Positions 211 through 57,440 of a DNA stretch of 57,440 nt are shown piece by piece (the stretch's first letter is position 1; each line of letters starts with the position of its first letter). The stretch comes from Clostridia bacterium (lineage in GTDB: Bacteria > Bacillota > Clostridia > Oscillospirales > CAG-272), in contig JAGBYM010000025.1 in assembly GCA_017628755.1 (NCBI GenBank), positions 1 through 57,440 of the forward strand, in the 5' to 3' direction. The notes under the pieces were generated by a model. The model was not told the DNA's origin. It saw only the letters and a program-made list of their open reading frames with translations, and did no database searches. The translations under genes were made by a program, and so were the position numbers.

Positions 211-1929
211 ATGAAAAAAGCGCTTTCTATTATCCTCTCCCTCTGCATGATCCTTGCGATCTGCTCCTTCTCTGTATCCGCAGCTCCCGAAGGAACTGCT
301 ATTACCGATGAAGCCGGCTTCCTCGCTATGGCGGCAGACGGAACCTACTACCTCGCAAATGACATTACCATCACCAAGTCCTATGAGGCTACTTTCACAG
401 GCACCCTCGACGGTAACGGCAAGACCGTGACCGTTTCGGCTCCTATGTTCGTAAACTTCGCAGGCACCGCAAAGAACTTCACCATCGCAGGTGCAGTTAC
501 CGTTGCAGAAGGCCATGCGGGCGCACTCGCAAATGACTCCCTCGGCGGAACCGCAGTTGTTCTTGAGAACATCATCAACAATGCTGCAGTAACCGGTCCT
601 GATGTTACCGGCGGTCTTATCGGTCAGTTCGGTGCTAAGGGCGCGGCAAACGGCATCTCCCTCACCGTTACCGGCTGTGTTAACAACGCAACCGTTACCG
701 GCGTACAGCAGACCGGCGGTCTTGTCGGCTACGGCTTCTTCAACACCGGCGACGACCTTGCTACCGAAGCAGGCGCAACCTTCACCGCTTGTGTAAACAA
801 CGGCGCGGTTTCCTCTACCCTCGGTCACACCGGCGGTATTCTCGGACGTTCTGCATACTCCAAGAATATGGTATTTACCAAGTGCATTAACAACGGCGCT
901 ATCTGCGGCGGTCACAACACCGGCGGTATCTTCGGACACGCTACCTCTTCGGTTACCTATATGACCTACTGCCAGAACAACGGCACCATCACCAACGTTG
1001 ATGCTCCCGCTACCGATTCCGTATACGCAGGCGGTCTTATCGGCTACGGTCAGGGCACCAAGGCTGAGACCCTCACCGCAGGCGACGGCTACTATGCAAA
1101 CAAGATCGAATTCTGCATCAACACCGGCGACGTAATCGGCGCTTACCGTGCAGGCGGTATCGCAGCTTCCAGCGGAGCTTCCGGAGCATTCGGTCTTTCC
1201 CTTATCAACTACTGTATCAACACCGGTGACATCACCTCCAGAGGTCTTGGTACTTCCGCAGCTGCTAACGCTGCAGGCGGTATCCAGGGCTACGGCTACG
1301 GCTCCGGTACCAAGGAATACGCTTACGTCACCAACTGCATTACCACCGGTAACGTAGAATCCAAGGGCGCTGAAAAGGGCGTTGCTTCCTACTTCCTCGG
1401 CTACATCAGCTCCAAGTACGCTGTTGTTAAGGACAACACCGCTACCGGAACTCTTACCAGCGCATGCGGCAACACCTTCGCACTCTGCTGGAACAATGCC
1501 GCTGAGTTCGCTCCCGAAAACATCACCGGCAACTCTCTCCCCGCAGGCAGCACCTACGCTCTCACCTATGAGAACGCGATCGTTGATAAAGCATACGAAG
1601 TAGGCGCAACCGATGAGGCTGCTCTTACAAGCGGTGCGGCTGTTTACGCTATCAACCAGGCAGCAGGTCAGGAAGTTGTTTACATGACTGTTGACGGAAC
1701 CTTCAATCCTACCGTTATCGCGGCTGAAGACGGCTCCAACAGCATCGTAAAGAACGCTGACGGCACCTACGGCAACCCCGTAAAGGAACCCGAAACCACC
1801 GAGCCCGCTCCCGAGACCACTGAGCCTTCTCAGGGTCCCGCAACCGGTGACTCCTTCGTGATCTTCGCGGTCATCGCAGCTATCTCCGTCCTCGGTGTAG
1901 CAGTTGTTGCTAAGAGACGCGAAAATTAA
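211..1929 (+). CDS. Secreted cell-surface protein with GLUG-type beta-helix repeats, Pro/Glu/Thr linker and C-terminal sorting-signal-like anchor
   Basis: ORF track 193-1929 begins at TTG. ATG at 211 follows GAAAGGA. Signal peptide MKKALSIILSLCMILAICSFSVSA. About 7 repeats of C-x-N-x-G...GG(I/L)xG. Tail PETTEPAPETTEPSQGPATGDSFVIFAVIAAISVLGVAVVAKRREN. Confidence 0.85.
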   Translation: MKKALSIILSLCMILAICSFSVSAAPEGTAITDEAGFLAMAADGTYYLANDITITKSYEATFTGTLDGNGKTVTVSAPMFVNFAGTAKNFTIAGAVTVAEGHAGALANDSLGGTAVVLENIINNAAVTGPDVTGGLIGQFGAKGAANGISLTVTGCVNNATVTGVQQTGGLVGYGFFNTGDDLATEAGATFTACVNNGAVSSTLGHTGGILGRSAYSKNMVFTKCINNGAICGGHNTGGIFGHATSSVTYMTYCQNNGTITNVDAPATDSVYAGGLIGYGQGTKAETLTAGDGYYANKIEFCINTGDVIGAYRAGGIAASSGASGAFGLSLINYCINTGDITSRGLGTSAAANAAGGIQGYGYGSGTKEYAYVTNCITTGNVESKGAEKGVASYFLGYISSKYAVVKDNTATGTLTSACGNTFALCWNNAAEFAPENITGNSLPAGSTYALTYENAIVDKAYEVGATDEAALTSGAAVYAINQAAGQEVVYMTVDGTFNPTVIAAEDGSNSIVKNADGTYGNPVKEPETTEPAPETTEPSQGPATGDSFVIFAVIAAISVLGVAVVAKRREN

Positions 1930-6250: not shown

Positions 6251-7525
6251 ATGTATCTTAATGAAGAACAGCAGGCGATACTGAACGGCTCGCAGGGCGA
6301 GACCATGGCGAAGATCATGAAGACCATGGTTATGTTCGGTGACGCTTTTGGAGCCGAAAAGATGGTTCCCGTTACATCAAAGCACAACCACCTCGTTACC
6401 TCCTTCGGTCTGAAGGTAATGGCACCCGTTTATGACCTTATGCAGCAGCTTCTCGACGCGGGCATGAAGTCGTCTCAGACCTTCTCTGTCGACCCCAGAC
6501 CCGTTGACAAGAACGTTCCCGCAAACTTCCTCCAGAACCTCGTATTCAACAAGCTGATGTACACCAAGCAGAATTTCTACGAGGAACAGCTCCATAAGCT
6601 CGGGCTTATGTCTGACGACGCCTTCACCTGCGCTTGCTACCTTGATCAGGTCGGCAACGTACCGAAGAAGGGCGACGTTCTCTCCTGGGCAGAGTCGAGT
6701 GCAGTTGTTTACGCAAACTCGGTTCTCGGCGCACGCTGTAACCGCAACTCGGGCATCATGGATATCATGGGCTCGATCGTCGGCTACGTTCCCTACTTTG
6801 GTCTTCTCACCGACGAGGGAAGACGCGCGACCTGGATCATCAAGATCGAGACCACCAAGAAGCCTGAGGCACAGCTTCTCGGCTCGGCAATCGGCATGAA
6901 GGTAATGGAGGACGTTCCCTACGTTATCGGACTTGATAAGTGGATCGGCTCCGAGCTTGACGACTCGGCTTGCACCTACCTCAAGGATTTCGGCGCGGCA
7001 ACCGCATCGAACGGTGCAGTCGGTCTCTATCATATCGACAACCTCACCCCCGAGGCAAAGGAGCAGGGCAAGTCTCTGATCGCCGAGGGCGCGAAGGAAT
7101 ACGTTATCACAGATGCCGAGCTCGAGAGAGTCAAGGCAAACTACCCCGTTGTCTGGAAGAATCCCGACGCAAAGCCGAAGCTCTGCTTCATGGGATGCCC
7201 GCATATGTCCCTCCAGCAGCTTAAGGACTGGACAGACAAGGTCGAAGCCGGACTCAAGGCGGCAGGAAACAAGACCGTTCTCATCCCCACCGTATTCACA
7301 GCAGCTCCCAAGGTTCTTGAAGAATTCAACAAGACCGAATACGCCGCACGCCTCAAGGCGACCGGCGTTATCACCTCCTATATCTGCCCGCTTATGTACA
7401 TGAACAACCCGCTCTGCAAGAAGATGCCCGTCATCACCTCGTCGAATAAGCTCCGCACCTACACCACCGCGCGCTACTACACCGACGACGAGATTCTTGC
7501 GGCTATCACAAAGGGAGGTAAATGA
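6251..7525 (+). CDS. Aconitase X (AcnX, DUF521) catalytic large subunit
   Basis: RBS AAGGAG. N-terminus MYLNEEQQAILNGSQGETMAKIMKTMVMFGDAFGAEKMVPVTS is typical of DUF521/AcnX. 424 aa. Followed by an overlapping swivel-domain subunit. Confidence 0.75.
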   Translation: MYLNEEQQAILNGSQGETMAKIMKTMVMFGDAFGAEKMVPVTSKHNHLVTSFGLKVMAPVYDLMQQLLDAGMKSSQTFSVDPRPVDKNVPANFLQNLVFNKLMYTKQNFYEEQLHKLGLMSDDAFTCACYLDQVGNVPKKGDVLSWAESSAVVYANSVLGARCNRNSGIMDIMGSIVGYVPYFGLLTDEGRRATWIIKIETTKKPEAQLLGSAIGMKVMEDVPYVIGLDKWIGSELDDSACTYLKDFGAATASNGAVGLYHIDNLTPEAKEQGKSLIAEGAKEYVITDAELERVKANYPVVWKNPDAKPKLCFMGCPHMSLQQLKDWTDKVEAGLKAAGNKTVLIPTVFTAAPKVLEEFNKTEYAARLKATGVITSYICPLMYMNNPLCKKMPVITSSNKLRTYTTARYYTDDEILAAITKGGK

Positions 7526-7971
7526 AAATGAGAGAATTCAAAGGACGCGTTGTAACACCCGGTACGACCACCGCTGAAGCCGTTGTCACCACTCAGGGCT
7601 TCAACACCCTCGCTTCGATGCAGATGGCTCTGCAGTTCGGCGACAAGGAAACCAAGTGCGGCGACCAGAACAACCCCGAGATCAACGGCAAGCCCCTCTG
7701 CGGTAAGGCTCTTTGCCTGCCCCAGACGATCGGCTCGACCACGGGCGGTCTCGTTCTCTACTGCGCATGCTCGATGAAGCGTCAGCCCGCTTGTATGCTC
7801 TTCTCCGAGCATATCGACTCACTCGCGGCGGCTGGTGCGGTTCTCGCTTCCGTTTGGTGCGAGGACATCAACATGCCCGTTATCGACTGCCTCGGTGAGG
7901 AATTCATCAATTACGTCAAAACCGGCATGACCGTCACCGTTAAGGAAGACGGCGTGGTAGTTGTAGAATAA
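7522..7971 (+). CDS. Aconitase X swivel-domain small subunit (DUF126)
   Basis: Start ATG overlaps the stop of the large subunit (ATGA). GSTTGGLVLY and QPACMLF segments resemble the DUF126 family. 149 aa. Confidence 0.7.
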   Translation: MKMREFKGRVVTPGTTTAEAVVTTQGFNTLASMQMALQFGDKETKCGDQNNPEINGKPLCGKALCLPQTIGSTTGGLVLYCACSMKRQPACMLFSEHIDSLAAAGAVLASVWCEDINMPVIDCLGEEFINYVKTGMTVTVKEDGVVVVE

Positions 7972-7990: not shown

Positions 7991-8100
7991 TAATCGCCTG
8001 CGGCGAATGATGATCTGCTTCGCAGAATGATAATCGCCGCAGGCGAATGATAGTTTGCTACGCAAAATGAAGGTGAATTTTCGCCGAAGCGAAAATTTTC
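7991..8100 (+). repeat. Mini-hairpin array, copy A (4 units at exact 20-nt period plus terminal TGAAGGT-hairpin module)
   Basis: Units TCGCC-TGC-GGCGA (7994-8006), TCTGC-TTC-GCAGA (8014-8026), TCGCC-GCA-GGCGA (8034-8046), TTTGC-TAC-GCAAA (8054-8066), separated by AATGAT(G/A)A. Then AATGAAGGTGAATTT and hairpin TTTTCGC/GCGAAAA with a T-run (8078-8099). Confidence 0.85.
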
Positions 8101-8195
8101 GATTATTATTAAATCACGCATAAAATCTTGCAGAATACAATAGGATGATTTAATAAAGATCGAAAATTTCCGAGCATCGCGAGTAAATTCACCTT
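8070..8195. repeat. About 126-bp imperfect palindrome built from three collinear 11-bp inverted-repeat pairs
   Basis: AAGGTGAATTT (8070-8080) / AAATTCACCTT (8185-8195). AAATTTTCGAT (8093-8103) / ATCGAAAATTT (8159-8169). TTATTAAATCA (8106-8116) / TGATTTAATAA (8146-8156). Confidence 0.8.
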
Positions 8196-8242
8196 AACTC
8201 TGCACTTCCTTTTTCACATCACTTCTCTCCCGGAGGCTCAAT

Positions 8243-9441: not shown

Positions 9442-10290
9442 TTATATCTTTCCTTCTTCAATAAGCTCGATGAGGCTTGCGATAAGTCCTTCCGTGTGGT
9501 GGCAGAGGCAGATATCGGAGACCGCCTTTACGCAATCGAGTGCGTTGGTGGGGCAAACGGCGACGTCTGCCAATTTGAGCATTGCAAGGTCGTTTTCGTA
9601 GTCACCGCAAGCAAAGAGTCTTACGGGCTTGCCGACCTTTTTCTCAACGTACTCGCGGAGTGCGGGGAGCATAGTTGCCTTTGTGATTCCGGGTGCCTGA
9701 AATTCAAGATACGCCACGCCCGATTTGCTCGTCATAAAGCGTTCGGGCCATTTCGCTTCGATCACCGCGCGGAATTCGTCGGTGCGCTCGGGTGTACCTC
9801 TGACAACGACCTTATACCAATCGGGAACCGAAAACCAATCCTCCTCGGGCAGTGTGAAAACCTTTGCGGGTGCCACTCTCTCCAGATCGTGATCGACCTC
9901 GTGGCAACGCTCGCGCTGACCGGGGGAGGAAAGGAAGCCCTCCTCGACCGAAATTCTCGCGCCGAGATCGGGGAAATCACGAACCATGATCTCGATGATG
10001 TCCATAACGTGCTCGCGGTTCATGAGTCTGCCTTCAATAATTCTATCGGTGCGGAGATCGCAAAGCATCGCGCCGTTACAGCCAACAACGGGCGCATTGA
10101 CAAGGTCAGCGGCATCGCTCCATTTATGTTTAAGATTGAGATTGGTTCGACCCGTTGCGATGGTGAAATGACCGCCCTGTGCCTTGAGACGCTCAACTGC
10201 CTCGAGATTGCGCTCGATGGGTGAGCCGTGCTTGCCGAAAAAGGTGCCGTCAAGGTCGGTGACGATCAGAATATTACTTAAATCTGCCAT
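9442..10290 (-). CDS. Cof-type HAD-IIB family hydrolase (sugar-phosphate phosphatase-like)
   Basis: N-terminal DxD motif ILIVTDLDGTFF, TIATGR, and C-terminal GDYENDLAML. 282 aa. Confidence 0.75.
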   Translation of the reverse strand: MADLSNILIVTDLDGTFFGKHGSPIERNLEAVERLKAQGGHFTIATGRTNLNLKHKWSDAADLVNAPVVGCNGAMLCDLRTDRIIEGRLMNREHVMDIIEIMVRDFPDLGARISVEEGFLSSPGQRERCHEVDHDLERVAPAKVFTLPEEDWFSVPDWYKVVVRGTPERTDEFRAVIEAKWPERFMTSKSGVAYLEFQAPGITKATMLPALREYVEKKVGKPVRLFACGDYENDLAMLKLADVAVCPTNALDCVKAVSDICLCHHTEGLIASLIELIEEGKI

Positions 10291-20915: not shown

Positions 20916-22016
20916 TCACTCAATAAACATCGCATCGCCGAATGAGAAGAATCTGTATTTCTCGCGGACGGCGGTATTGTAGACCTCAAGCATCTTTTCT
21001 CTTTCGTAGAAAGCAGAAACGAGCATCAGCAGGGTGGACTTGGGAAGGTGGAAATTGGTTATCAGCGCATCGGTCGCCTTGAAGCGGTAGCCGGGGTAGA
21101 TGAAGATTCCCGTGTCTCCGCTTATGGGATGAACGATGCCCTGCTCGTCCGAAACGCTTTCAAGCGTACGGCAGGAGGTCGTTCCGACGCAGACGGTTCT
21201 TCCGCCCGCGGCGCGGCGGCTGTTGATGATATCCGCGCTCTCCTTTGAGACCGAGATATATTCGGTGTGCATAACGTGCTCGCCGATGTTCTCCTCCTTG
21301 ACGGGACGGAAGGTTCCGAGTCCAACGTGGAGCATGACGGGCACAACAGCTACGCCCTTGGCTTTGATCTTTTCAAGAAGCTCGGGGGTGAAGTGCAGAC
21401 CCGCTGTCGGCGCGGCGGCAGAACCCTCGCGCTTAGCATATACTGTCTGGTAGCGGGACTTATCCTCAAGCCTTGCCGTGATGTACGGGGGCAGTGGCAT
21501 AACGCCTACTTCTGAGAGCATGTCGTACACGTTCGCGTAACAACTTTTGTCGTATTCAAGTCTGACCAGACGGTTGCCTTCCTCAACGATATCCTCAACA
21601 GTTGCAACGAGTGCGCCACCGCCGAAGACCATCTTCATTCCGATTCTGGCGCGTTTTCCGGGTTTTACGAGAGTCTCCCAGAGATCGTCGCCGCGCTGAC
21701 GGAGCAGAAGAAGCTCGACCATTGCTTCCTCTCTGCCATCGGCATGTCCGTAAAGACGCGCGGGAATAACCTTTGAATCGTTGACAACGAGGGTGTCACC
21801 CTCGCGCAGATGATCAATTATATCGTAAAAATGCTTGTGCGTAAGAGAGCCGCTCTCTCTGTCAACGCAGAGCAGACGCGAGGAATCGCGGGGCTCAGCG
21901 GGGTGCTGTGCGATCTGCTCTTCGGGCAGAAAATAGTCAAAATCCGACGTGCAAAGCTCTGTTTCAGGCTTTGCGTTTATAATAATATCACTCATTTTAA
22001 ATCTCACATTAAACAT
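20916..22016 (-). CDS. queA: S-adenosylmethionine:tRNA ribosyltransferase-isomerase
   Basis: SDFDYFLPEEQIAQHP near the N-terminus, then VGTTSCRTLES. The start could be the ATG at 22016 or at 21995 (MSDII...). Confidence 0.92.
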   Translation of the reverse strand: MFNVRFKMSDIIINAKPETELCTSDFDYFLPEEQIAQHPAEPRDSSRLLCVDRESGSLTHKHFYDIIDHLREGDTLVVNDSKVIPARLYGHADGREEAMVELLLLRQRGDDLWETLVKPGKRARIGMKMVFGGGALVATVEDIVEEGNRLVRLEYDKSCYANVYDMLSEVGVMPLPPYITARLEDKSRYQTVYAKREGSAAAPTAGLHFTPELLEKIKAKGVAVVPVMLHVGLGTFRPVKEENIGEHVMHTEYISVSKESADIINSRRAAGGRTVCVGTTSCRTLESVSDEQGIVHPISGDTGIFIYPGYRFKATDALITNFHLPKSTLLMLVSAFYEREKMLEVYNTAVREKYRFFSFGDAMFIE

Positions 22017-22089
22017 AATTAGCCTATTATATATATTATATAATAAATTCGCAAAAAAAGCAATAACTATTTTGAGAAAGGAGAGAATT

Positions 22090-22998
22090 TTGAGTAAATT
22101 TTCTTTGTTTTTCGGCGCGGGAACGGCACTCCCGACGCCATTTGAGCAAAGCGGCGAGCTCGACCTTGAATCCTACCGCAAGCTTCTGCGTTTTCAGCTC
22201 GATTCGGGTATCGACGCGCTTCTCGTCTGCGGCACCACGGGTGAGGCACCGACGCTCTCGGACGATGAGGCGACAACCCTCCTTTGCGAGACGGTAAGAA
22301 CGGCGCAAAGATGCGTTCCCGTCATTATGGGAGTCGGATCAAACTGCACCGCGCACGCAGCCGAAAAGGCACGTCAGGCAGAAAAAAACGGCGCCGATGC
22401 TCTGCTTGCCGTCACGCCGTATTATAACAAATGCACCCCCGAGGGGCTTGTCCGACACTACCGTGAAATTGCCTCGGCAACCTCTCTTCCCATCATCGCA
22501 TACACCGTTCCCTCGCGCACGGGAATGACGATCCCGCCGAGCATTTGGGGCGAGCTTTTCGCCATTCCAAACATGATCGGCATCAAGGACGCGACTGGGG
22601 ACATCGCCTACGGAGCGCAATTTTTGTCTCATTTCGGGAGTGAGATCTGCCTCTGGTCAGGCAACGATAACGCCACTCTTCCCCTGCTTTCGCTCGGTTC
22701 TGAGGGTGTAATTTCAGTGCTTTCAAACATAAAACCGAAGGAGACTTCAAGGCTCTGCCACGCCTTCGCCGAGGGCAAAATAGGCGAAGCGCAAGCCCTC
22801 GCAAACGCGCTTTTACCCCTCTCCGACGCCCTCTTCTGCGAGGTAAATCCCATCCCCGTCAAAGCCGCGCTGTCGATAATGGGACTTTGCAAACCCTATT
22901 GCAGAATGCCGCTGACGACGGCGAGTGAAAGTACGTTCAAAAAGCTTGAAAGATTGCTAATCTCGCTTCGCTCGAATGATAATCTGCCTTCGGCATAA
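22090..22998 (+). CDS. dapA: 4-hydroxy-tetrahydrodipicolinate synthase
   Basis: TTG at 22090 is preceded by AAAGGAGAG. GAGTALPTPF, CGTTGE, PYYNK and IIGIKDATGD motifs. The last ~13 codons and the stop lie inside repeat copy B. Confidence 0.9.
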   Translation: MSKFSLFFGAGTALPTPFEQSGELDLESYRKLLRFQLDSGIDALLVCGTTGEAPTLSDDEATTLLCETVRTAQRCVPVIMGVGSNCTAHAAEKARQAEKNGADALLAVTPYYNKCTPEGLVRHYREIASATSLPIIAYTVPSRTGMTIPPSIWGELFAIPNMIGIKDATGDIAYGAQFLSHFGSEICLWSGNDNATLPLLSLGSEGVISVLSNIKPKETSRLCHAFAEGKIGEAQALANALLPLSDALFCEVNPIPVKAALSIMGLCKPYCRMPLTTASESTFKKLERLLISLRSNDNLPSA

Positions 22999-23050
22999 TG
23001 ATCGTCGGCTACGCCGAATGATAATTTGCCTGCGGCAAAATGAAAGGTAA
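22961..23050 (+). repeat. Mini-hairpin array, copy B
   Basis: Units TGCC-TTC-GGCA, TCGGC-TAC-GCCGA and TTTGCC-TGC-GGCAAA with AATGAT(A/C) spacers. Ends AAATGAAAGGTAAC, directly before the terminator at 23052. Confidence 0.8.
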
Positions 23051-23051
23051 C

Positions 23052-23079
23052 AAAAAATCGGGGATATCCCCGATTTTTT
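23052..23079. terminator. Bidirectional Rho-independent terminator
   Basis: AAAAAATCGGGG-ATAT-CCCCGATTTTTT. Confidence 0.85.
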
Positions 23080-23091
23080 GTTTTATTTTTA

Positions 23092-32049: not shown

Positions 32050-32099
32050 TGTATTTTCCTTTCTTTTGAGAAAAGTGTGTTATTATTAAGAGTCTATAG

Positions 32100-32362
32100 A
32101 TTTAATCAAACTTGGCGGATAGAGATATAATTCGCAAAAATCCCGCAGTTGCGCATTCTCCTTCCACCACTTCCGTGGTCCCCCTCCCTCCCGGAGGGAG
32201 GCAAGGAGTATGTGCGAACACCGTTTGTTTTTCTATGGCGTCTATATGATTATTATTTTGAAAAGCTGTGTTCGCACTCGCAATCTCGGCTCCCTCTGAG
32301 GAGGGAGCTGTCGCGAAGCGACTGAGGGAGAGATTGAAAAATTTCTAAATATCGTAGCGAGG
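32100..32362 (-). repeat. Field of heterogeneous GC-rich short hairpins adjoining array copy C
   Basis: ACCAC-TTCC-GTGGT (32166-32179). CCTCCCT-CCCGG-AGGGAGG (32183-32201). GTGCGAACAC (32212-32221) / GTGTTCGCAC (32268-32277). GCTCCCTC-TGAG-GAGGGAGC (32289-32308). GTCGC-GAA-GCGAC (32310-32322). Confidence 0.75.
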
Positions 32363-32456
32363 AAATTCACCTTCATTTTGCCGTAGGCAAATTATCATTC
32401 CGCCATAGGCGGATTACCATTCGGCGTAGCCGATTATCATTCACGCGAAGCGTGAT
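32363..32456 (-). repeat. Mini-hairpin array, copy C (reverse orientation on the + strand; co-directional with tcdA)
   Basis: + strand reads GAAATTCACCTTCATT, then TTTGCC-GTA-GGCAAA (32377-32391), TCCGCC-ATA-GGCGGA (32399-32413), TCGGC-GTA-GCCGA (32421-32433) and TCACGC-GAA-GCGTGA (32441-32455), with ATTA(T/C)CATT spacers. Confidence 0.85.
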
Positions 32457-33148
32457 AAGTTTCTTATAATGTGTCCCGCCATTATAAGTCCCACTGCGCC
32501 GGGAACAAATGACAGGCTTCCGGGAATATTCCTTCCGTTTTCGGCGCCGAGTCCCTGCGCCTTGATCGGTTCTTCGTCCGACCAGACAACGTCGAGCTTC
32601 CCCACGCCCTTTTCCTTCATCTTCTTGCGCATTATCTTCGCAAGCGGGCAGACGCTCGTTTTGCTTATATCGGATATGCGGAAACGCTCGGGGTAGAGCT
32701 TGTTGCCCGCACCCATAGAGGCGATCACTGGCACTCCCGCCGCATCGGCGCGGCATATAAGCTCAACCTTCGCCGCAACCGTGTCAACGGCATCGGCAAT
32801 GAAATCAAATTGCGAGAGGTCGATCTCATCGGCGTTTTCGGGCAGATAGAAGAGGTTGATTGCGTGCACCTTGCATTCGGGATTGATCGAAAGAATGCGC
32901 TCCGCCATGATCTCGGCTTTCGATCTGCCGACGGTGTCCTGCGTTGCGATTATCTGGCGGTTTACGTTGGAAGCAGAGACCGTGTCACCGTCAATGACGG
33001 TCAGCTCACCGACTCCCGCGCGCGCCAAAGCCTCGCAAAGATGTCCACCAACGCCGCCGAGTCCGAAGACCGCAACGTGCGAGTTACGTAATCTTTCCAC
33101 ACCACCGTCACCAAGCAACGCCCGCGTGCGTGTATCGTCAAGTTGCAT
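32441..33148 (-). CDS. tcdA: tRNA threonylcarbamoyladenosine dehydratase (ThiF/MoeB-fold, TcdA/CsdL)
   Basis: VAVFGLGGVGGHLCEALARAGVGELTVIDGDTVSASNVNRQ. 235 aa. The last 5 codons and the stop are supplied by hairpin unit 32441-32455. Confidence 0.85.
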   Translation of the reverse strand: MQLDDTRTRALLGDGGVERLRNSHVAVFGLGGVGGHLCEALARAGVGELTVIDGDTVSASNVNRQIIATQDTVGRSKAEIMAERILSINPECKVHAINLFYLPENADEIDLSQFDFIADAVDTVAAKVELICRADAAGVPVIASMGAGNKLYPERFRISDISKTSVCPLAKIMRKKMKEKGVGKLDVVWSDEEPIKAQGLGAENGRNIPGSLSFVPGAVGLIMAGHIIRNLSRFA

Positions 33149-38726: not shown

Positions 38727-38842
38727 ATCGGGCTTCGCCCGAATGGTTATTGGCTTCGCCAAATGATTATCGGCAAAGCCGAATGATGATTCGCCCAAGG
38801 GGCGAAATGAAGGAAATTTTTCGCCACTTGGCGAAAAATCAT
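38727..38842 (+). repeat. Mini-hairpin array, copy D
   Basis: ATCGGGC-TTC-GCCCGAT-like, TGGC-TTC-GCCA, CGGC-AAA-GCCG and TCGCCC-AA-GGGGCGA units with AATG(G/A)TTAT / AATGATGAT spacers. Then AAATGAAGGAAATTTTTCGCC-ACTT-GGCGAAAAAT. Confidence 0.8.
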
Positions 38843-50103: not shown

Positions 50104-50190
50104 CAATTCATTCCTTTCGTACTTTTGCCATCCGGAATGATTTTAACACAGAAAAATGTCGTATGACTGACAGAAAGCTGTCGGAAGAAT

Positions 50191-50364
50191 AGTTGTTAGT
50201 TATTAGTTGCTAGTTGAATGATAATTTCTTCGCGTTGCTCAGAAATTTTCCTATTATAATAAAAAACTCGGATATTCCAAAAGCGGAATATCCGAGTAAA
50301 TTATTGAATTGATTTTCGACTTGTCGAAAATCTACCTTCAACTAGCAACTAATAACTAGCAACT
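50191..50364 (-). repeat. MITE-like unit: 28-bp inverted repeats (27/28) flanking a 118-bp core that holds the terminator of the surface-protein gene
   Basis: AGTTGTTAGTTATTAGTTGCTAGTTGAA (50191-50218) versus TTCAACTAGCAACTAATAACTAGCAACT (50337-50364). The core contains AATGATAAT, a CTCGGATATTCC hairpin and the GAAGGTAGATTTTCGAC-AAGT-GTCGAAAATC module (minus-strand reading). Confidence 0.75.
50261..50297 (-). terminator. Rho-independent terminator of gene 50378-52123
   Basis: ACTCGGATATTCC (50266-50278) / GGAATATCCGAGT (50285-50297). A6 on the + strand gives a T-run on the transcript. Confidence 0.8.
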
Positions 50365-50377
50365 AGCAACTGAAAAC

Positions 50378-52123
50378 TTAGTTTTCTCTTCTCTTAGCAA
50401 CAACTGCAACACCGATAACGGAAACAGCTGCGATAATTGCGAAGACTACGAAGGAGTCACCGGTCTCACCGGATACGGGAGGCTCAGTGGTCTCGGGAGC
50501 GGGCTCGGTGGTCTCGGGAGCCGGCTCGGTCTCTACGGGAGGAACGTAGTTAGCAACGTCGGTAAGAGTACCCTTGTAGAGAGCAGCATCCTTGATACCG
50601 AGAGTGCACATATCGTGGTAGAGATATACGCCGCATGCAACCTGAGGTGCGCCTGCGAACTCTGCAGCAGTGCCGTTGTAGGTCTCGAAGAGTACCCACT
50701 CACCTGCAGCATCCTTGTAGTAGAGGCTCCAGGAGTAACCGTCAACGGTTACAGCCATATCAGCATAACCCTCTGCGTCGAACGCGATGTTCTTATCAAG
50801 AGCGGAGAACTTGGTGTAGGAGGTGGTCTTTACGGTCTCGTGACCCTTGATCTTGGTGCCGCTGATGCAAACAACCATATCGGAATCTGCGGAGCCGTTG
50901 AGGTTGCCGTAGAAGTTGTAGAGCTGAGCCCAGTTATACTTCATATTGGTCTCATCAAGGTTGAAGAATACGCCGCCGCGGAGCTCGTTGGTCTTTACCT
51001 TGTAGGTGAAGGTGTAAACGGTGTCAGCGGTGTACTCAAGAGAACCGATCGCGCCGCCCCACCAGGTAGCACCCTGGCCTGCGTCCTTCATATTAGCATC
51101 GGTGGGCTTATCAAAGTCGATCTGCTTGCCATCGTCGGAGATGGTGATGATGGGATCGGTACCGGTAAGATTGAGCATCTGAGGAGCGAAATCAGTGCCG
51201 TTCTTGAAGAGAATGTCGGTAAGCTTAGCGCCAAGGCCTGCCTTTTCGTAAGCATCCATAGTAAGAGTCTTTGCGTTGAGCATCATTGCGCCGGACCAGT
51301 CAAGCTTCTCTGCGCCTTCGCGGAGTGCGGGATAGGTGAAGCCCTTAGCGGTGTAGATGTTACCCTCGTATACAACAGCATCCTTGAAGGTTACGGAGCC
51401 TGCGTTGTAAACGTAGAAAATAAGAGCGAGATCGTCATAGTTGTTTGCAAAGGGAATATAGCCCTCGTCAAAGAACTCACCGTTGATGAATACACGGTAA
51501 ACAAAACCGTCTACTTCAATGGAAACCTTGCAGAAGCCCTCTGCATCGGGAGTGTAAATGCCGCCAACATAGTTGGTTGCATCACTTACGTAAAGACCGT
51601 AGTCCTTGCTGCCCGCGCCGCGGGAAAGAGTGTTCTTGGGTGTGCCGTTCCAGCCCTCGGGGGTTCCGTAGTAGCCGCGGAGAGCGTTCATGGTATCGGT
51701 ATACTTGCTGTTGTTGGGATTAATTGCAGCCCAATCGCCATCAACTACATCCTTGTTACCGTTGATGTAAACACCAAAGTTCTGCATAGCACTCTTGCCT
51801 TCGATGGAGTTGTCAGCAAGAACTTCAACAGTGTACTTCTTGTCTGCGCCAAGCTTGAGACCGTCAATTACGTCACCGTAGAAGTATCTCTTACCCTTGG
51901 TGATAACGGTTACGGTTGCTGCATTACCGTCCTCGGAAACTTCCGAGGTAACGCCGTCTGCCTTATCGTTTGTGGCAAACATTTTGAATGTGTACTTGTC
52001 GTCGTTCTTAAAGTTGATCTTATGGAGAACGTCGCCTTCCTTAGCGGAGGTCGAGATACCCATAGCAGCAACAAGAGCGAGGATCATAGTGAGTGCGAGA
52101 ATTGCGCTGAGGATCTTTTTCAT
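50378..52123 (-). CDS. Secreted surface protein with two tandem lectin/ConA-like (DUF1080-like) jelly-roll domains, PETTEP linker and TGDSFV...AKRREN C-terminal sorting-signal-like anchor
   Basis: Signal peptide MKKILSAILALTMILALVAAMGISTSA. Two ~250-aa halves, ending ...VTFKDAVVYEG and ...LGIKDAALYKG. Tail PETTEPPVSGETGDSFVVFAIIAAVSVIGVAVVAKRREN. Confidence 0.8.
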   Translation of the reverse strand: MKKILSAILALTMILALVAAMGISTSAKEGDVLHKINFKNDDKYTFKMFATNDKADGVTSEVSEDGNAATVTVITKGKRYFYGDVIDGLKLGADKKYTVEVLADNSIEGKSAMQNFGVYINGNKDVVDGDWAAINPNNSKYTDTMNALRGYYGTPEGWNGTPKNTLSRGAGSKDYGLYVSDATNYVGGIYTPDAEGFCKVSIEVDGFVYRVFINGEFFDEGYIPFANNYDDLALIFYVYNAGSVTFKDAVVYEGNIYTAKGFTYPALREGAEKLDWSGAMMLNAKTLTMDAYEKAGLGAKLTDILFKNGTDFAPQMLNLTGTDPIITISDDGKQIDFDKPTDANMKDAGQGATWWGGAIGSLEYTADTVYTFTYKVKTNELRGGVFFNLDETNMKYNWAQLYNFYGNLNGSADSDMVVCISGTKIKGHETVKTTSYTKFSALDKNIAFDAEGYADMAVTVDGYSWSLYYKDAAGEWVLFETYNGTAAEFAGAPQVACGVYLYHDMCTLGIKDAALYKGTLTDVANYVPPVETEPAPETTEPAPETTEPPVSGETGDSFVVFAIIAAVSVIGVAVVAKRREN

Positions 52124-55825: not shown

Positions 55826-56176
55826 TTCCCCTCCCTGTTCAAGGGAGGGGAGTGAGGGGTGGGTCCCTTTTTACAAATTCAAAATTATCAGGATATCGGC
55901 GAGGACTCTGTGGGCGCGCAAAATTACCTGAACCAATTCCGCAGAAAAACGAAATCTCTATAGAAAACGCGCGCCGGACTGGCGCGCGAGGATAAAGGAG
56001 CGAAAATTTCCCGCAAGGGAAATTTTACTCCTTTCAAGCGGTCACCGAGGACGGCGACCGCTTGAAGCACAGGAAAGAGTTTCGCGCTCTGCGGAGCGCG
56101 ACAAGGGCTTCGCGCCCTTGACTGCGCCACCTTTTGAAAAAGGTGGACGAAAACTTTCCCGCTTTTAACTAAAAAT
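55826..56176 (-). repeat. Field of at least 8 consecutive heterogeneous GC-rich hairpins adjoining array copy E
   Basis: CCCCTCCCT-GTTCA-AGGGAGGGG (55828-55850). CGCGCGCC-GGACT-GGCGCGCG (about 55967-55989). AAAGGAG.GAAAATTTCCC-GCAA-GGGAAATTTT.CTCCTTT (55994-56034). CAAGCGGTC...GACCGCTTG (56035-56065). TCGCGCTC-TGCG-GAGCGCGA (56081-56100). CAAGGGC-TTCGC-GCCCTTG (56102-56120). CCACCTTT-TGAA-AAAGGTGG (56127-56146). Confidence 0.8.
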
Positions 56177-56298
56177 GAAAATTTCCGCCTCGGCGGAAAT
56201 TAACCTTCATTTTGCCGAAGGCAAATTATCATTCGCCGAAGGCGATTATCATTCTCGCGCAGCGAGATAACCATTCACGCGTAGCGTGACTATCATTC
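56177..56298 (-). repeat. Mini-hairpin array, copy E (co-directional with typA/bipA)
   Basis: + strand reads AATTTCCGCC-TC-GGCGGAAATT, TAACCTTCATT, then TTTGCC-GAA-GGCAAA (56211-56225), TCGCC-GAA-GGCGA (56233-56245), TCTCGC-GCA-GCGAGA (56253-56267) and TCACGC-GTA-GCGTGA (56275-56289), with ATTATCATT / ATAACCATT spacers. Confidence 0.85.
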
Positions 56299-56332
56299 AA
56301 AAAAGCAGGACGCCATGCGTCCTGCTTTTTTT
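56299..56332. terminator. Rho-independent terminator of typA/bipA (symmetrical A/T runs)
   Basis: AAAAAAGCAGGACGC-CAT-GCGTCCTGCTTTTTT. Confidence 0.85.
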
Positions 56333-56339
56333 GATAGAA

Positions 56340-57440
56340 TTATTTCTCCAGTCCTCTCTTAATACGGCTCTGCGCTTTGAGTCGCGTTTCGGTATTAAGG
56401 ATTCTCTTACGGATTCTGATAGACTTGGGAGTTGCCTCGATAAGCTCGTCGTCGCCGATGAACTCGATCGCCTCCTCAAGGCTGAAGAGCACGGGAGGAG
56501 TCAGAAGAAGCTTCTCGTCCGCGCCCGAAGAACGGATTGCGGTAAGCTGCTTTCTCTTGCAGGGATTGAGCGTGATATCCTCCATCTTGGGACACTCGCC
56601 GACAACCATGCCCTCGTAAACGGGCTGGCCGGGCACAACGAACATTCTGCCGCGGTCCTGACAGTTGTAGATACCGTAGGTGGTGGTCTCGTTGGTCTCG
56701 CTTGCAACAAGCGAGCCGGTAAATCTCATCGGGATCTCGCCCTTATAGGGTGCGTAGCTGTCAAAAATGGTATTGAGTATACCCTCGCCGTGGGTGTCGG
56801 TCATAAACTTGGTTCTGTAACCGAAGAGGCAACGGGTGGGGATAAGGTATTCGAGCCTCATTCTCGAGCCAACCTGATGCATCTCAAGCAGCTCGCCCTT
56901 TCTCTGACCGAGCTTTTCGATAACTGCGCCCATATACTGCTCGGGCACGTCAACCGTCAGACGCTCGATAGGCTCGCACTTTTCGCCGTTCTCTTCCTTA
57001 AATAATACACGGGGGGTTGAGCAGCAGATCTCATAGCCTTCGCGGCGCATTGTCTCGAGAAGGATCGAAAGATGCATCTCGCCTCTGCCCGCAACAAGGA
57101 ATTCCTCGGTCGTGTCGCCGTCGTTTACGCGGAGAGAAACGTCCTTGAGAAGCTCGCGGTAGAGTCTGTCGCGGATCTGGCGCGAGGTAACGAACTTACC
57201 CTCACGTCCCGCAAAGGGGCTGTCATTGACCGAGAAGGTCATTTCGATGGTCGGCTCGCTAACCTTAACGAACTCGAGAGGCTCGGGGTTGGTGAGCGAC
57301 GCGACCGTGTCGCCGATATTGATATCGCCTGCGCCCGAGAAGCACACGATGTCACCCATCTTTGCCTCTTCAACGGGTACGCGGCGGAGACCGTCGATCT
57401 GGAAGAGCGACGCGATACGTACGCGCTTCGGCTTTTCCTC
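56340..57440 (-). CDS. typA: Translational GTPase TypA/BipA, C-terminal ~366 codons (5' part lies beyond the window end)
   Basis: The reading frame is open to the window edge. TFSVNDSPFAGREGKFVTSRQIRDRL, GRGEMHLSILLETMRREGYE, and a C-terminal ELIEATPKSIRIRKRIL typical of BipA. Confidence 0.9.
   Translation of the reverse strand, partial: EEKPKRVRIASLFQIDGLRRVPVEEAKMGDIVCFSGAGDINIGDTVASLTNPEPLEFVKVSEPTIEMTFSVNDSPFAGREGKFVTSRQIRDRLYRELLKDVSLRVNDGDTTEEFLVAGRGEMHLSILLETMRREGYEICCSTPRVLFKEENGEKCEPIERLTVDVPEQYMGAVIEKLGQRKGELLEMHQVGSRMRLEYLIPTRCLFGYRTKFMTDTHGEGILNTIFDSYAPYKGEIPMRFTGSLVASETNETTTYGIYNCQDRGRMFVVPGQPVYEGMVVGECPKMEDITLNPCKRKQLTAIRSSGADEKLLLTPPVLFSLEEAIEFIGDDELIEATPKSIRIRKRILNTETRLKAQSRIKRGLEK

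Follow-up and report, generated by a model that had tools for sequence, protein, structure and literature searches.

The 57,440-nucleotide stretch of DNA analysed here (the window), from contig JAGBYM010000025.1 of the Clostridia bacterium assembly GCA_017628755.1, contains dispersed arrays of short, GC-rich hairpins. Two of these, arrays C and E, had been singled out in a first-pass annotation whose central observation is confirmed by our analysis and whose interpretation is partly supported. C and E are dispersed copies of a non-coding hairpin array, and represent a TTATCAT/ATGATAA-linker variant of the Gut-1 motif class. Array C runs into the end of a tcdA/ThiF-family gene and array E lies between convergent genes, one of them bipA/typA. 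The identities of the genes flanking the arrays in the window are confirmed by Pfam. The features at these two sites are as follows.

32340-32367, plus strand: degenerate head hairpin of array C, AATTTCT...CGTAGCGAGGAAATT; relatives have an intact head here
32368-32376, plus strand: head-to-array junction of array C, CACCTTCAT, kept in most copies
32377-32455, plus strand: array C, four perfect units with linkers TTATCAT, TTACCAT and TTATCAT
32377-32391, plus strand: array C unit a, TTTGCC-GTA-GGCAAA
32399-32413, plus strand: array C unit b, TCCGCC-ATA-GGCGGA
32421-32433, plus strand: array C unit c, TCGGC-GTA-GCCGA
32441-32455, plus strand: array C unit d (tail), TCACGC-GAA-GCGTGA
32441-33148, minus strand: tcdA/ThiF-family gene, whose last five codons (TCA CGC TTC GCG TGA) are the array C tail unit
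56180-56210, plus strand: array E head hairpin AATTTCCGC-CTCG-GCGGAAATT (56180-56201) and junction AACCTTCAT
56211-56298, plus strand: array E, four perfect units and terminal linker CTATCATTC
56211-56225, plus strand: array E unit a, TTTGCC-GAA-GGCAAA
56233-56245, plus strand: array E unit b, TCGCC-GAA-GGCGA
56253-56267, plus strand: array E unit c, TCTCGC-GCA-GCGAGA
56275-56289, plus strand: array E unit d, TCACGC-GTA-GCGTGA
56299-56331: hairpin resembling an intrinsic terminator in both directions, which separates array E from bipA/typA
56340-57440, minus strand: bipA/typA gene, oriented convergently

The arrays are built to a common plan in which each unit has the form T-(GC-rich stem of 4-6 bp)-G-N-A-(stem)-A and consecutive units are separated by a 7-nt linker. 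They are also polar. The inner end, or head, is a longer AT/GC hairpin with CACCTTCAT, and the outer end, or tail, is often a TCGCGC or TCACGC unit followed by CA(A/G). A (C/A)ACCTTCAT junction and the longer head hairpin precede the first unit in both C and E, the head hairpin being intact in E and degenerate in C; in a contig from RNA run X15 an intact head, TTCAAAAATCGAAAATTTTCGCATCGGCGA, stands in place of 32082-32362. When folded as single-stranded DNA, C and E each form a plain row of hairpins on either strand (z of about -5.3 to -5.7). The unit sequences and positions originally given for the two arrays are exact, and all eight units are perfect palindromes. Across the window the linker ATTATCATTC, allowing at most one mismatch, occurs 16 times against 4.15 expected. 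There are six copies of the array in these 57 kb (A to F), each either intergenic or lying over the last codons of a gene; the five listed in the first-pass annotation (A to E) stand, and a sixth, array F, had been overlooked.

Both sites have other hairpins close by. The centre of element C (32082-32362) holds further GC-rich hairpins (GGCTCCCTC-TGA-GGAGGGAGC, GTCGC-GAA-GCGAC and CCTCCCTCCGGGAGGGAGG) that are part of a very high-copy repeat, with contig word depth of up to 643 compared to about 15 in the flanks in bovine gut metagenome run X5. Beside array E, 56070-56180 is a field of unrelated strong hairpins, within which the segment at about 56107-56157 (GCGCCACCTTTTGAAAAAGGTGG...) reaches a depth of 329 in metatranscriptome run X21 and has a similar counterpart in metagenome contig L125.

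Pairing and turnover of the hairpin units

We sought to characterize the constraint on the stems using a larger set of arrays, assembled from a scan of metagenomes that used the first unit as anchor, in which 11 of 13 loci were genuine arrays, together with two contigs of a related metagenome-assembled genome (MAG). This set comprises 20 dispersed arrays with 79 units. A scan of genome contigs with the pattern ATTATCATT-N9-17-ATTATCATT was too loose, with only L103 and L113 genuine among 120 loci, and a scan of viral contigs found no hairpin array. The single match in the viral scan, at 10058-10090 of IMG/VR contig L134, consists of tandem AATGATTATCATT motifs which are Fur-box-like palindromes unrelated to the hairpin arrays.

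Perfect palindromes make up 73 of the 79 units and are formed from 19 different stems. In a permutation null, in which 3' arms were shuffled among units of equal length, the mean number of perfect units is 16 and the maximum 29. Among the 28 distinct 15-nt units, 96.4% of cells are paired, and four of the six stem pairs change on both sides (44 cells). The covariation score of these units is 0.631, compared to 0.176 +/- 0.029 in shuffled sets, and is reached in none of 500 shuffles; controls in which the arms were slid show 18-46% pairing. Since the stems covary and yet remain self-complementary, the constraint acts on intra-strand pairing rather than on a double-stranded protein site, which upholds the fold-level constraint originally proposed. 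On the evidence of these alignments, the pairing constraint is either selection or a palindrome-preserving mechanism, acting within one strand.

The individual arrays differ in which units they contain. The first and last units are positional, with the TTTGCC unit first in 12 of the 20 arrays and the last unit of TCACGC or TCGCGC type, and the middle units are drawn from a common repertoire that includes TCGGC, TCTGC, TCGCC, TCCGCC, TCTCGC and others. Consequently C and E are collinear, as claimed, only in unit number and in their terminal unit types (TTTGCC first, TCACGC last), while units b and c are different members of the repertoire. The differences between C and E had been taken as compensatory stem changes; instead of in-situ compensation between homologous units, we find different units of the repertoire. 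Comparison of orthologous sites gives the same picture. At the array C site of L172, whose TcdA is 91% identical, the units are TCACGC, TCTTGC, TCGGC and TTTGCC, compared to TCACGC, TCGGC, TCCGCC and TTTGCC in the window, and the tail-unit loop is inverted, the sense strand reading GAA in L172 and TTC in the window. The arrays L103- and L124- have flanks in common and differ in two of four units, and L141 has seven units and L142 four, though their PF05635 proteins (see below) are identical. The stems thus turn over fast through replacement, duplication and loss of units, with perfect self-complementarity kept. With 19 distinct stems and orthologous arrays that differ by whole units, the copies are not recent identical duplicates in which palindromy is simply inherited.

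Loop polarity and orientation of the arrays

The loops were counted on the strand that reads TTATCAT. On this strand 57 of 74 triloops are G-N-A and two are T-N-C, and the four tetraloops are all G-N-N-A (GAAA, GCAA, GTAA and GTAA). A C:G pair closes the loop in 78 of 79 units. Within the triloops position 1 is G in 57 and position 3 is A in 63, and position 2 varies freely (A 42, T 19, C 12, G 1). The report of G-N-A loops closed by C:G in seven of the eight C and E units is correct. A variant with tandem G.A/A.G pairs, CGAGC-GAA-GCGAG, recurs on the same strand in units of B, L121, L127 and L128, and tandem G.A pairs also appear in three head hairpins (L103+, L122 and D), next to a compensated pair that is C:G in L122 and T:A in D. 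On the opposite strand these variants would be pyrimidine-pyrimidine mismatches. Judged from sequence, the loop and tandem-G.A features favour the TTATCAT-reading strand as the folding strand.

Mini-hairpins of the types d(GCGAAGC) and d(C-GNA-G) are reportedly exceptionally stable (work of Hirao and of Yoshizawa). Loops of C(GNA)G and C(GNNA)G type contain a sheared G.A pair and form the most stable DNA mini-hairpins; they are favourable in RNA as well. With arms of only 5-6 bp the hairpins cannot be extruded from a duplex as cruciforms, and their folding consequently needs a single-stranded state.

Three other features were considered. The tetraloops of the head hairpins (CTCG, CTTG, CACG) are ruled out as a signature of RNA and are uninformative on strand, because C-N-N-G reads C-N-N-G either way. 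Wobble pairs, used as a strand test, give three G.T against one A.C, which is too few cases. The heptamer GCGAAGC is present at 32445-32451 and 32313-32319, as first reported, the latter in a different repeat; it is not enriched (18 seen, 18.7 expected) and was rejected as a signal.

The orientation of the arrays was examined relative to genes and replication. The remaining copies in the window, with the genes that abut them, are as follows.

7522-7971, plus strand: AcnX swivel gene, stop codon 22 nt from the array A tail
7994-8099, minus strand: array A, with head (8076-8099), junction (8067-8075) and four units (7994-8066)
21949-22998, plus strand: DHDPS gene, the last ~12 codons of which lie inside array B (22961-22998)
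22961-23039, minus strand: array B, with two perfect and two imperfect units, the latter being TATGCC/GGCAGA and TCGAGC-GAA-GCGAGA (tandem G.A)
38728-38839, minus strand: array F, the sixth copy, with head and four perfect units
~50190-50380, minus strand: copy D, read from the sequence as a small element with two-fold symmetry

Arrays A, B and C each follow an upstream gene encoded on the other strand, their tails lying 22 nt past its last codons or within them, and a tail that abuts or overlaps the upstream stop codon is seen in A, B, C, L103+, L121, L124+, L125, L129 and all left arrays of the mfd locus described below. In array C the tail unit encodes the C-terminus of TcdA, S-R-F-A-stop, common to relatives at 90-94% identity, and relatives with a different tail loop have a TcdA ending in SREA or SRLA. 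Arrays E and F have a terminator between the gene and the array tail, F being placed between the terminator of a decarboxylase gene and the start of a radical-SAM gene (38862). The head of array B is replaced by a terminator at ~23045-23083. Copy D has its head on the sense strand, and is composed of two head modules (one with tandem G.A pairs) around a central terminator-like hairpin, with inverted plain heptamer tracts of AGTTGCT/AGTTATT type at its edges and no hairpin units. Facing the head of array A, at 8160-8215, is an inverted partial copy of the head module (TTAAGGTGAATTT...), which identifies array A as a head-to-head pair whose right half has no units.

The first-pass annotation placed the GNA-loop strand on the template strand in all copies. 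This is correct for A, B, C and F, is reversed in D, and is ambiguous for E, which lies between convergent genes beside a bidirectional terminator. The rule also fails outside the window: in the right halves of complete elements, and in L103-, L124- and L128+, the G..A strand is the sense strand, and in these last three arrays it is positioned 13-19 nt upstream of a ribosome-binding site and start codon. The arrays of the window are the left halves of a two-fold symmetric element, and it is for this reason that their G..A strand is antisense to the upstream gene; the template-strand rule is a matter of geometry. A link to the leading or lagging strand had also been suggested as a check. GC skew is negative in 12 of 14 bins with no sustained change of sign across the window, and array orientation alternates with the genes (A minus, B minus, C plus, F minus). 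Because the sign of the skew is steady while the arrays lie both ways, orientation follows transcription units and not the replication strand, and the replication-strand hypothesis is ruled out.

Complete elements and the PF05635 gene

The complete elements are two-fold symmetric: a cargo in the centre is framed by an array on the left and an inverted array on the right. Each fits exactly into the gap from one gene's stop codon to the next gene's ribosome-binding site. As cargo they typically have a PF05635 gene, which encodes a four-helix bundle of the 23S rRNA intervening sequence (IVS) protein/Avd family. This layout was read in relatives (L129, the loci read among L135-L144 and L159-L171, and L174), none of the examples lying within the window. 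On contig L129 two inverted arrays, heads inward, enclose a 124-aa gene matching PF05635 (71.5 bits). Homologues of this protein occupy a conserved mfd / prsA-like / PF05635 / thiT locus, and we examined such loci across six proteins of the mfd clade (30 loci fetched) in addition to L129. In every one of the examined loci the PF05635 gene lies between a left array and an inverted right array. The left array of the mfd clade starts in the upstream stop codon and ends at the PF05635 ribosome-binding site, the inverted right array follows the gene, and the left arrays reuse stems found in the window (in L140, for example, TCACGC, TCCGCC, TCGGC and TCGCC).

The two halves of these elements mirror each other in both loops and linkers. 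On the sense strand of the gene, loops in the left array are T..C in 33 cases and G..A in two, and in the right array are G..A in 12 and T..C in four. The linkers change in concert on the two sides, ATGATAA occurring with TTATCAT, G[TC]GATAA with TTATCAC, and ATGGTTA with TAACCAT. The linker classes also track the PF05635 tree, a match for which vertical co-inheritance accounts equally well, and we have not kept the proposal that protein and linker co-evolve.

Inverted pairs of arrays also occur without the PF05635 gene (L103 and L124) or with other cargo, as in L128, where the pair is wedged between ptsI-like and crr-like genes. Inside the two inverted arrays of L128 is a 235-aa open reading frame (ORF; 341-1048, minus strand) with its own terminator and no Pfam match, possibly a non-PF05635 cargo. 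The array C site itself is occupied differently in different relatives. In L174, whose TcdA is 85% identical, arrays with a GCGATAT linker and a PF05635 gene are found directly downstream of tcdA, at the array C site, and L173 (TcdA 90% identical) has no array at this position. New in the present analysis are the mirrored loop polarity, the concerted change of left and right linkers, and the PF05635 gene at the orthologous array C site.

Relation to known systems and competing explanations

A scan of the whole window at Rfam gathering thresholds gave no matches. In a permissive scan the only meaningful match is Gut-1 (RF01706), on the strand opposite the G-N-A loops, with scores of 25.2 bits for array C (32387-32462, minus strand) and 34.3 bits for array E (56221-56298, minus strand), both below the gathering score of 50. 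The arrays have the Gut-1 architecture of at least three tandem hairpins with a constant purine-rich linker, and model positions 1-77 are aligned. They share with Gut-1 the rows of short GC-rich hairpins with 3-5 nt loops, the constant A/U-rich linker, and a distribution restricted to gut metagenomes and uncultured Clostridia. They differ in the linker, which is GUGAAAU in Gut-1 and AUGAUAA in C and E, and in having a head module and junction that Gut-1 lacks. Gut-1 was described in 2010 as limited to the human gut and a likely non-coding RNA (Weinberg et al. 2010, PMC2864571), and its published seed alignment already contains an inverted second half with AUAUCAC linkers. Rfam thus treats as a small RNA one strand of one half of what we find to be a two-fold symmetric element, in which the opposite strand is favoured as the optimised one. 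A literature search returned nothing on the function of Gut-1, nor on PF05635 in connection with hairpin arrays.

Three other systems invite comparison. The IVS of the Coxiella burnetii 23S rRNA has an S23p ORF within inverted terminal repeats whose ends form a stem cut by RNase III, and has tandem heptamer repeats upstream of the ORF that vary in number between strains (Warrier et al. 2016, PMC4990558). The elements in relatives of the window likewise have a PF05635 ORF inside inverted terminal repeats with heptamers, and their unit number varies between contigs with identical PF05635 proteins. Unlike 23S rRNA IVSs, which sit in helix 25 or 45, the array loci are all between protein-coding genes; the heptamers are interleaved with covarying mini-hairpins, and many gene-less half copies are scattered in the genome. 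Repetitive extragenic palindromes (REPs) and the mosaic elements built from them (BIMEs) resemble the arrays as high-copy extragenic palindromes at gene 3' ends that form mosaics of alternating orientation. The resemblance extends to the REPtron, in which a single conserved gene lies between inverted repeat copies and recognition of single-stranded DNA hairpins is presumed. The arrays lack the 5' GTAG tag of REPs, and they vary in their stems (19 types) and conserve the linker, the reverse of the situation in REPs; moreover the REPtron gene is a RAYT (an IS200/IS605-type Y1 transposase) whereas the gene flanked by the arrays is PF05635 at the loci examined. The third comparison, which offers a published precedent at the DNA level, is with the target hairpin of diversity-generating retroelements (DGRs). 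Placed where a gene finishes, at its 3' end or stop codon, this hairpin combines a GC-rich stem whose sequence varies with a 5'-GRNA loop specific to one strand, and it loses function when the loop is swapped from GAAA to CTTT (Guo et al. 2011, PMC3240598). The free-sequence GC stem, the conserved G..A loop at a stop codon and the presence in the system of an Avd (PF05635-family) protein are features held in common. The DGR hairpin differs in being a single hairpin of 7-10 bp with a 4-nt loop on the sense strand, and a DGR needs a reverse transcriptase and template and variable repeats (TR/VR), none of which was seen among the neighbours in the fetched PF05635 loci, where the Avd-family gene stands alone.

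The interpretation that we tentatively favour is that the arrays, a variant of Gut-1 scoring below its threshold, form hairpins that are under constraint as single-stranded DNA, in each half on the strand that reads outward. On this strand the ligand would be identical in the two halves, namely TTATCAT heptamers set next to one another by C(GNA)G or C(GNNA)G mini-hairpins. Since the polarity flips between the halves, one transcript cannot carry this ligand on both sides, and the constraint most likely bears on transiently single-stranded DNA of opposite strands; the mirrored loop polarity accordingly suggests DNA over messenger RNA. That the two halves present the same ligand only as single-stranded DNA of opposite strands is itself a step we take with some reserve. 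Such single strands might arise as 3' tails when the element is cut, or through unwinding that proceeds from the centre outward. The linker would be a sequence-specific site for a trans-acting factor, for which a PF05635 oligomer is the candidate, and the effect of the left halves on the host may be mainly that of hairpin blocks at 3' ends.

A number of observations weigh against this reading. Many of the sampled arrays are orthologous or paralogous, and the counts are not of independent events. The mirrored loops could be mere inheritance, the right halves being inverted copies of the left. Nearest-neighbour energies for C and E are nearly equal and separate neither the strands nor RNA from DNA. 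Of the arrays that stand alone, almost all are left halves lying in the same sense as the mRNA of the upstream gene, as a role in an RNA 3' untranslated region would predict, and 23S rRNA IVSs, the best-studied PF05635 relatives, act at the RNA level via RNase III (PMC4990558). Related arrays are present in metatranscriptome assemblies and the arrays are likely transcribed; the RNA runs are Logan contigs without strand direction, which show presence only. No nuclease, transposase, target-site duplication or movement was seen at the loci examined, and the link to PF05635 is drawn from loci in relatives.

A broader proposal, which we regard as doubtful and put forward as speculation, is that Gut-1-type arrays are not RNAs but serve in cis as the ends of a DNA element of a class not yet described, whose partners are ring proteins of the PF05635 (S23p/Avd-like) family. 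On the outward strand of each end, C(GNA)G mini-hairpins of single-stranded DNA would align the 7-nt linkers into a heptamer tract read by the oligomer. Plain heptamer arrays (as in copy D), rRNA IVSs and hairpin arrays would then be versions of one system that colonises junctions between stop codons and ribosome-binding sites, leaving half-copies behind. Both the 'RNA' motif Gut-1, since 2010, and the protein family PF05635/S23p, for ~30 years, have been orphans, and the pairing constraint, the mirrored loops and the flanking of PF05635 turn these two orphans into one testable protein-nucleic-acid pair. They also call into question the strand, and possibly the molecule, of Rfam's Gut-1 annotation. 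For the annotation of gut Clostridia MAGs it matters in addition that housekeeping genes (tcdA, DHDPS) have their terminal codons rewritten by the arrays, which also break metagenome assemblies.

The strongest alternative, on balance unlikely, is an RNA element in the Rfam Gut-1 orientation. The strand with UNC loops would be transcribed as the upstream gene's 3' untranslated end, where rows of hairpins would block 3' exonucleases or shape termination and the left and right linkers would pair into an IVS-like RNase III stem, the G..A bias being inherited and not selected. It is on the UNC strand that the Gut-1 model matches C and E, with the scores given above, and it is in the sense orientation that array tails abut the upstream stop codon and that a short T run follows the head hairpin; related arrays are found in metatranscriptome contigs, the complementarity of left and right linkers is preserved across three variants, and a PF05635-bearing IVS with variable heptamer repeats provides the RNase III precedent (PMC4990558). 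This alternative leaves the U..C loops without a known structural rationale, however, and turns the tandem G.A variants into C.T/T.C mismatches. Left and right arrays differ in the number and type of their units, which limits pairing to 7-nt segments. As RNA the row of hairpins competes with alternative folds, and the head is a poor terminator, with AAA before a run of only two to four U.

That there is no structural selection at all seems improbable. Here the arrays would be selfish or neutral repeats whose palindromes are kept by template switching within the palindrome or by arm-to-arm correction, with units shuffled by recombination at the linkers. Such processes fit the replacement and duplication of whole units between orthologous arrays, which is much faster than the divergence of their flanks, as well as the flip of the tail-unit loop from TTC to GAA between the window and L172 and the scarcity of wobble intermediates (four G.T among the six imperfect units). 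They do not explain why the G and A of the loop are conserved around a free middle base, why the closing C:G pair is invariant, why the tandem G.A variant recurs with compensated neighbours, or why the polarity of head, first TTTGCC unit and tail types is conserved.

It is very improbable that the G..A strand yields a separate small or antisense RNA, which would be initiated at the head hairpin, downstream of AT-rich -10-like boxes, and extend as antisense into the upstream gene's 3' end. TATAAT-like boxes do lie 2-8 nt upstream of the head in D, L121, L128- and A, GNA and GNRA loops are stable in RNA too, and a terminator follows array E on the G..A strand; but most copies (A, B, C) have no terminator past the tail, several have no -10-like box (L122), and at the PF05635 loci the left head abuts the ribosome-binding site of the gene, leaving no space for an outward promoter. 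An operator array in double-stranded DNA can hardly be right: the linker TGATAAT, which equals the 7-mer half-site of the Bacillus 7-1-7 Fur box, would bind a Fur/PerR-type regulator at a spacing of 20-22 bp, about two helical turns, but the half-sites are direct and not inverted repeats, relatives have GTGATAA, GCGATAT and ATGGTTA as linkers, a duplex site gives no reason for covarying palindromic spacers, and the arrays are located at gene 3' ends.

The surroundings of the PF05635 gene are more varied among its more distant homologues. Some of these are preceded by other small hairpins (L153/L154/L157), and others are positioned between direct repeat copies with plain heptamer tracts (L145/L151). 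On L145/L151 the direct copies, at 1125-1500 and 1885-2190, are of a ~90-nt repeat with T[AC]TTCAC tracts and flank the PF05635 gene P0112, which is seen on more than 100 contigs and has tRNA-like sequence upstream. In L135, L139, L140, L141 and L167, a sequence resembling a thiamine pyrophosphate (TPP) riboswitch (GGGGTGCCGTGCGGCTGAGA...CCTGATACGGGTAATACCGGCGAAGGAAG) lies between the right array and thiT (Thia_YuaJ).

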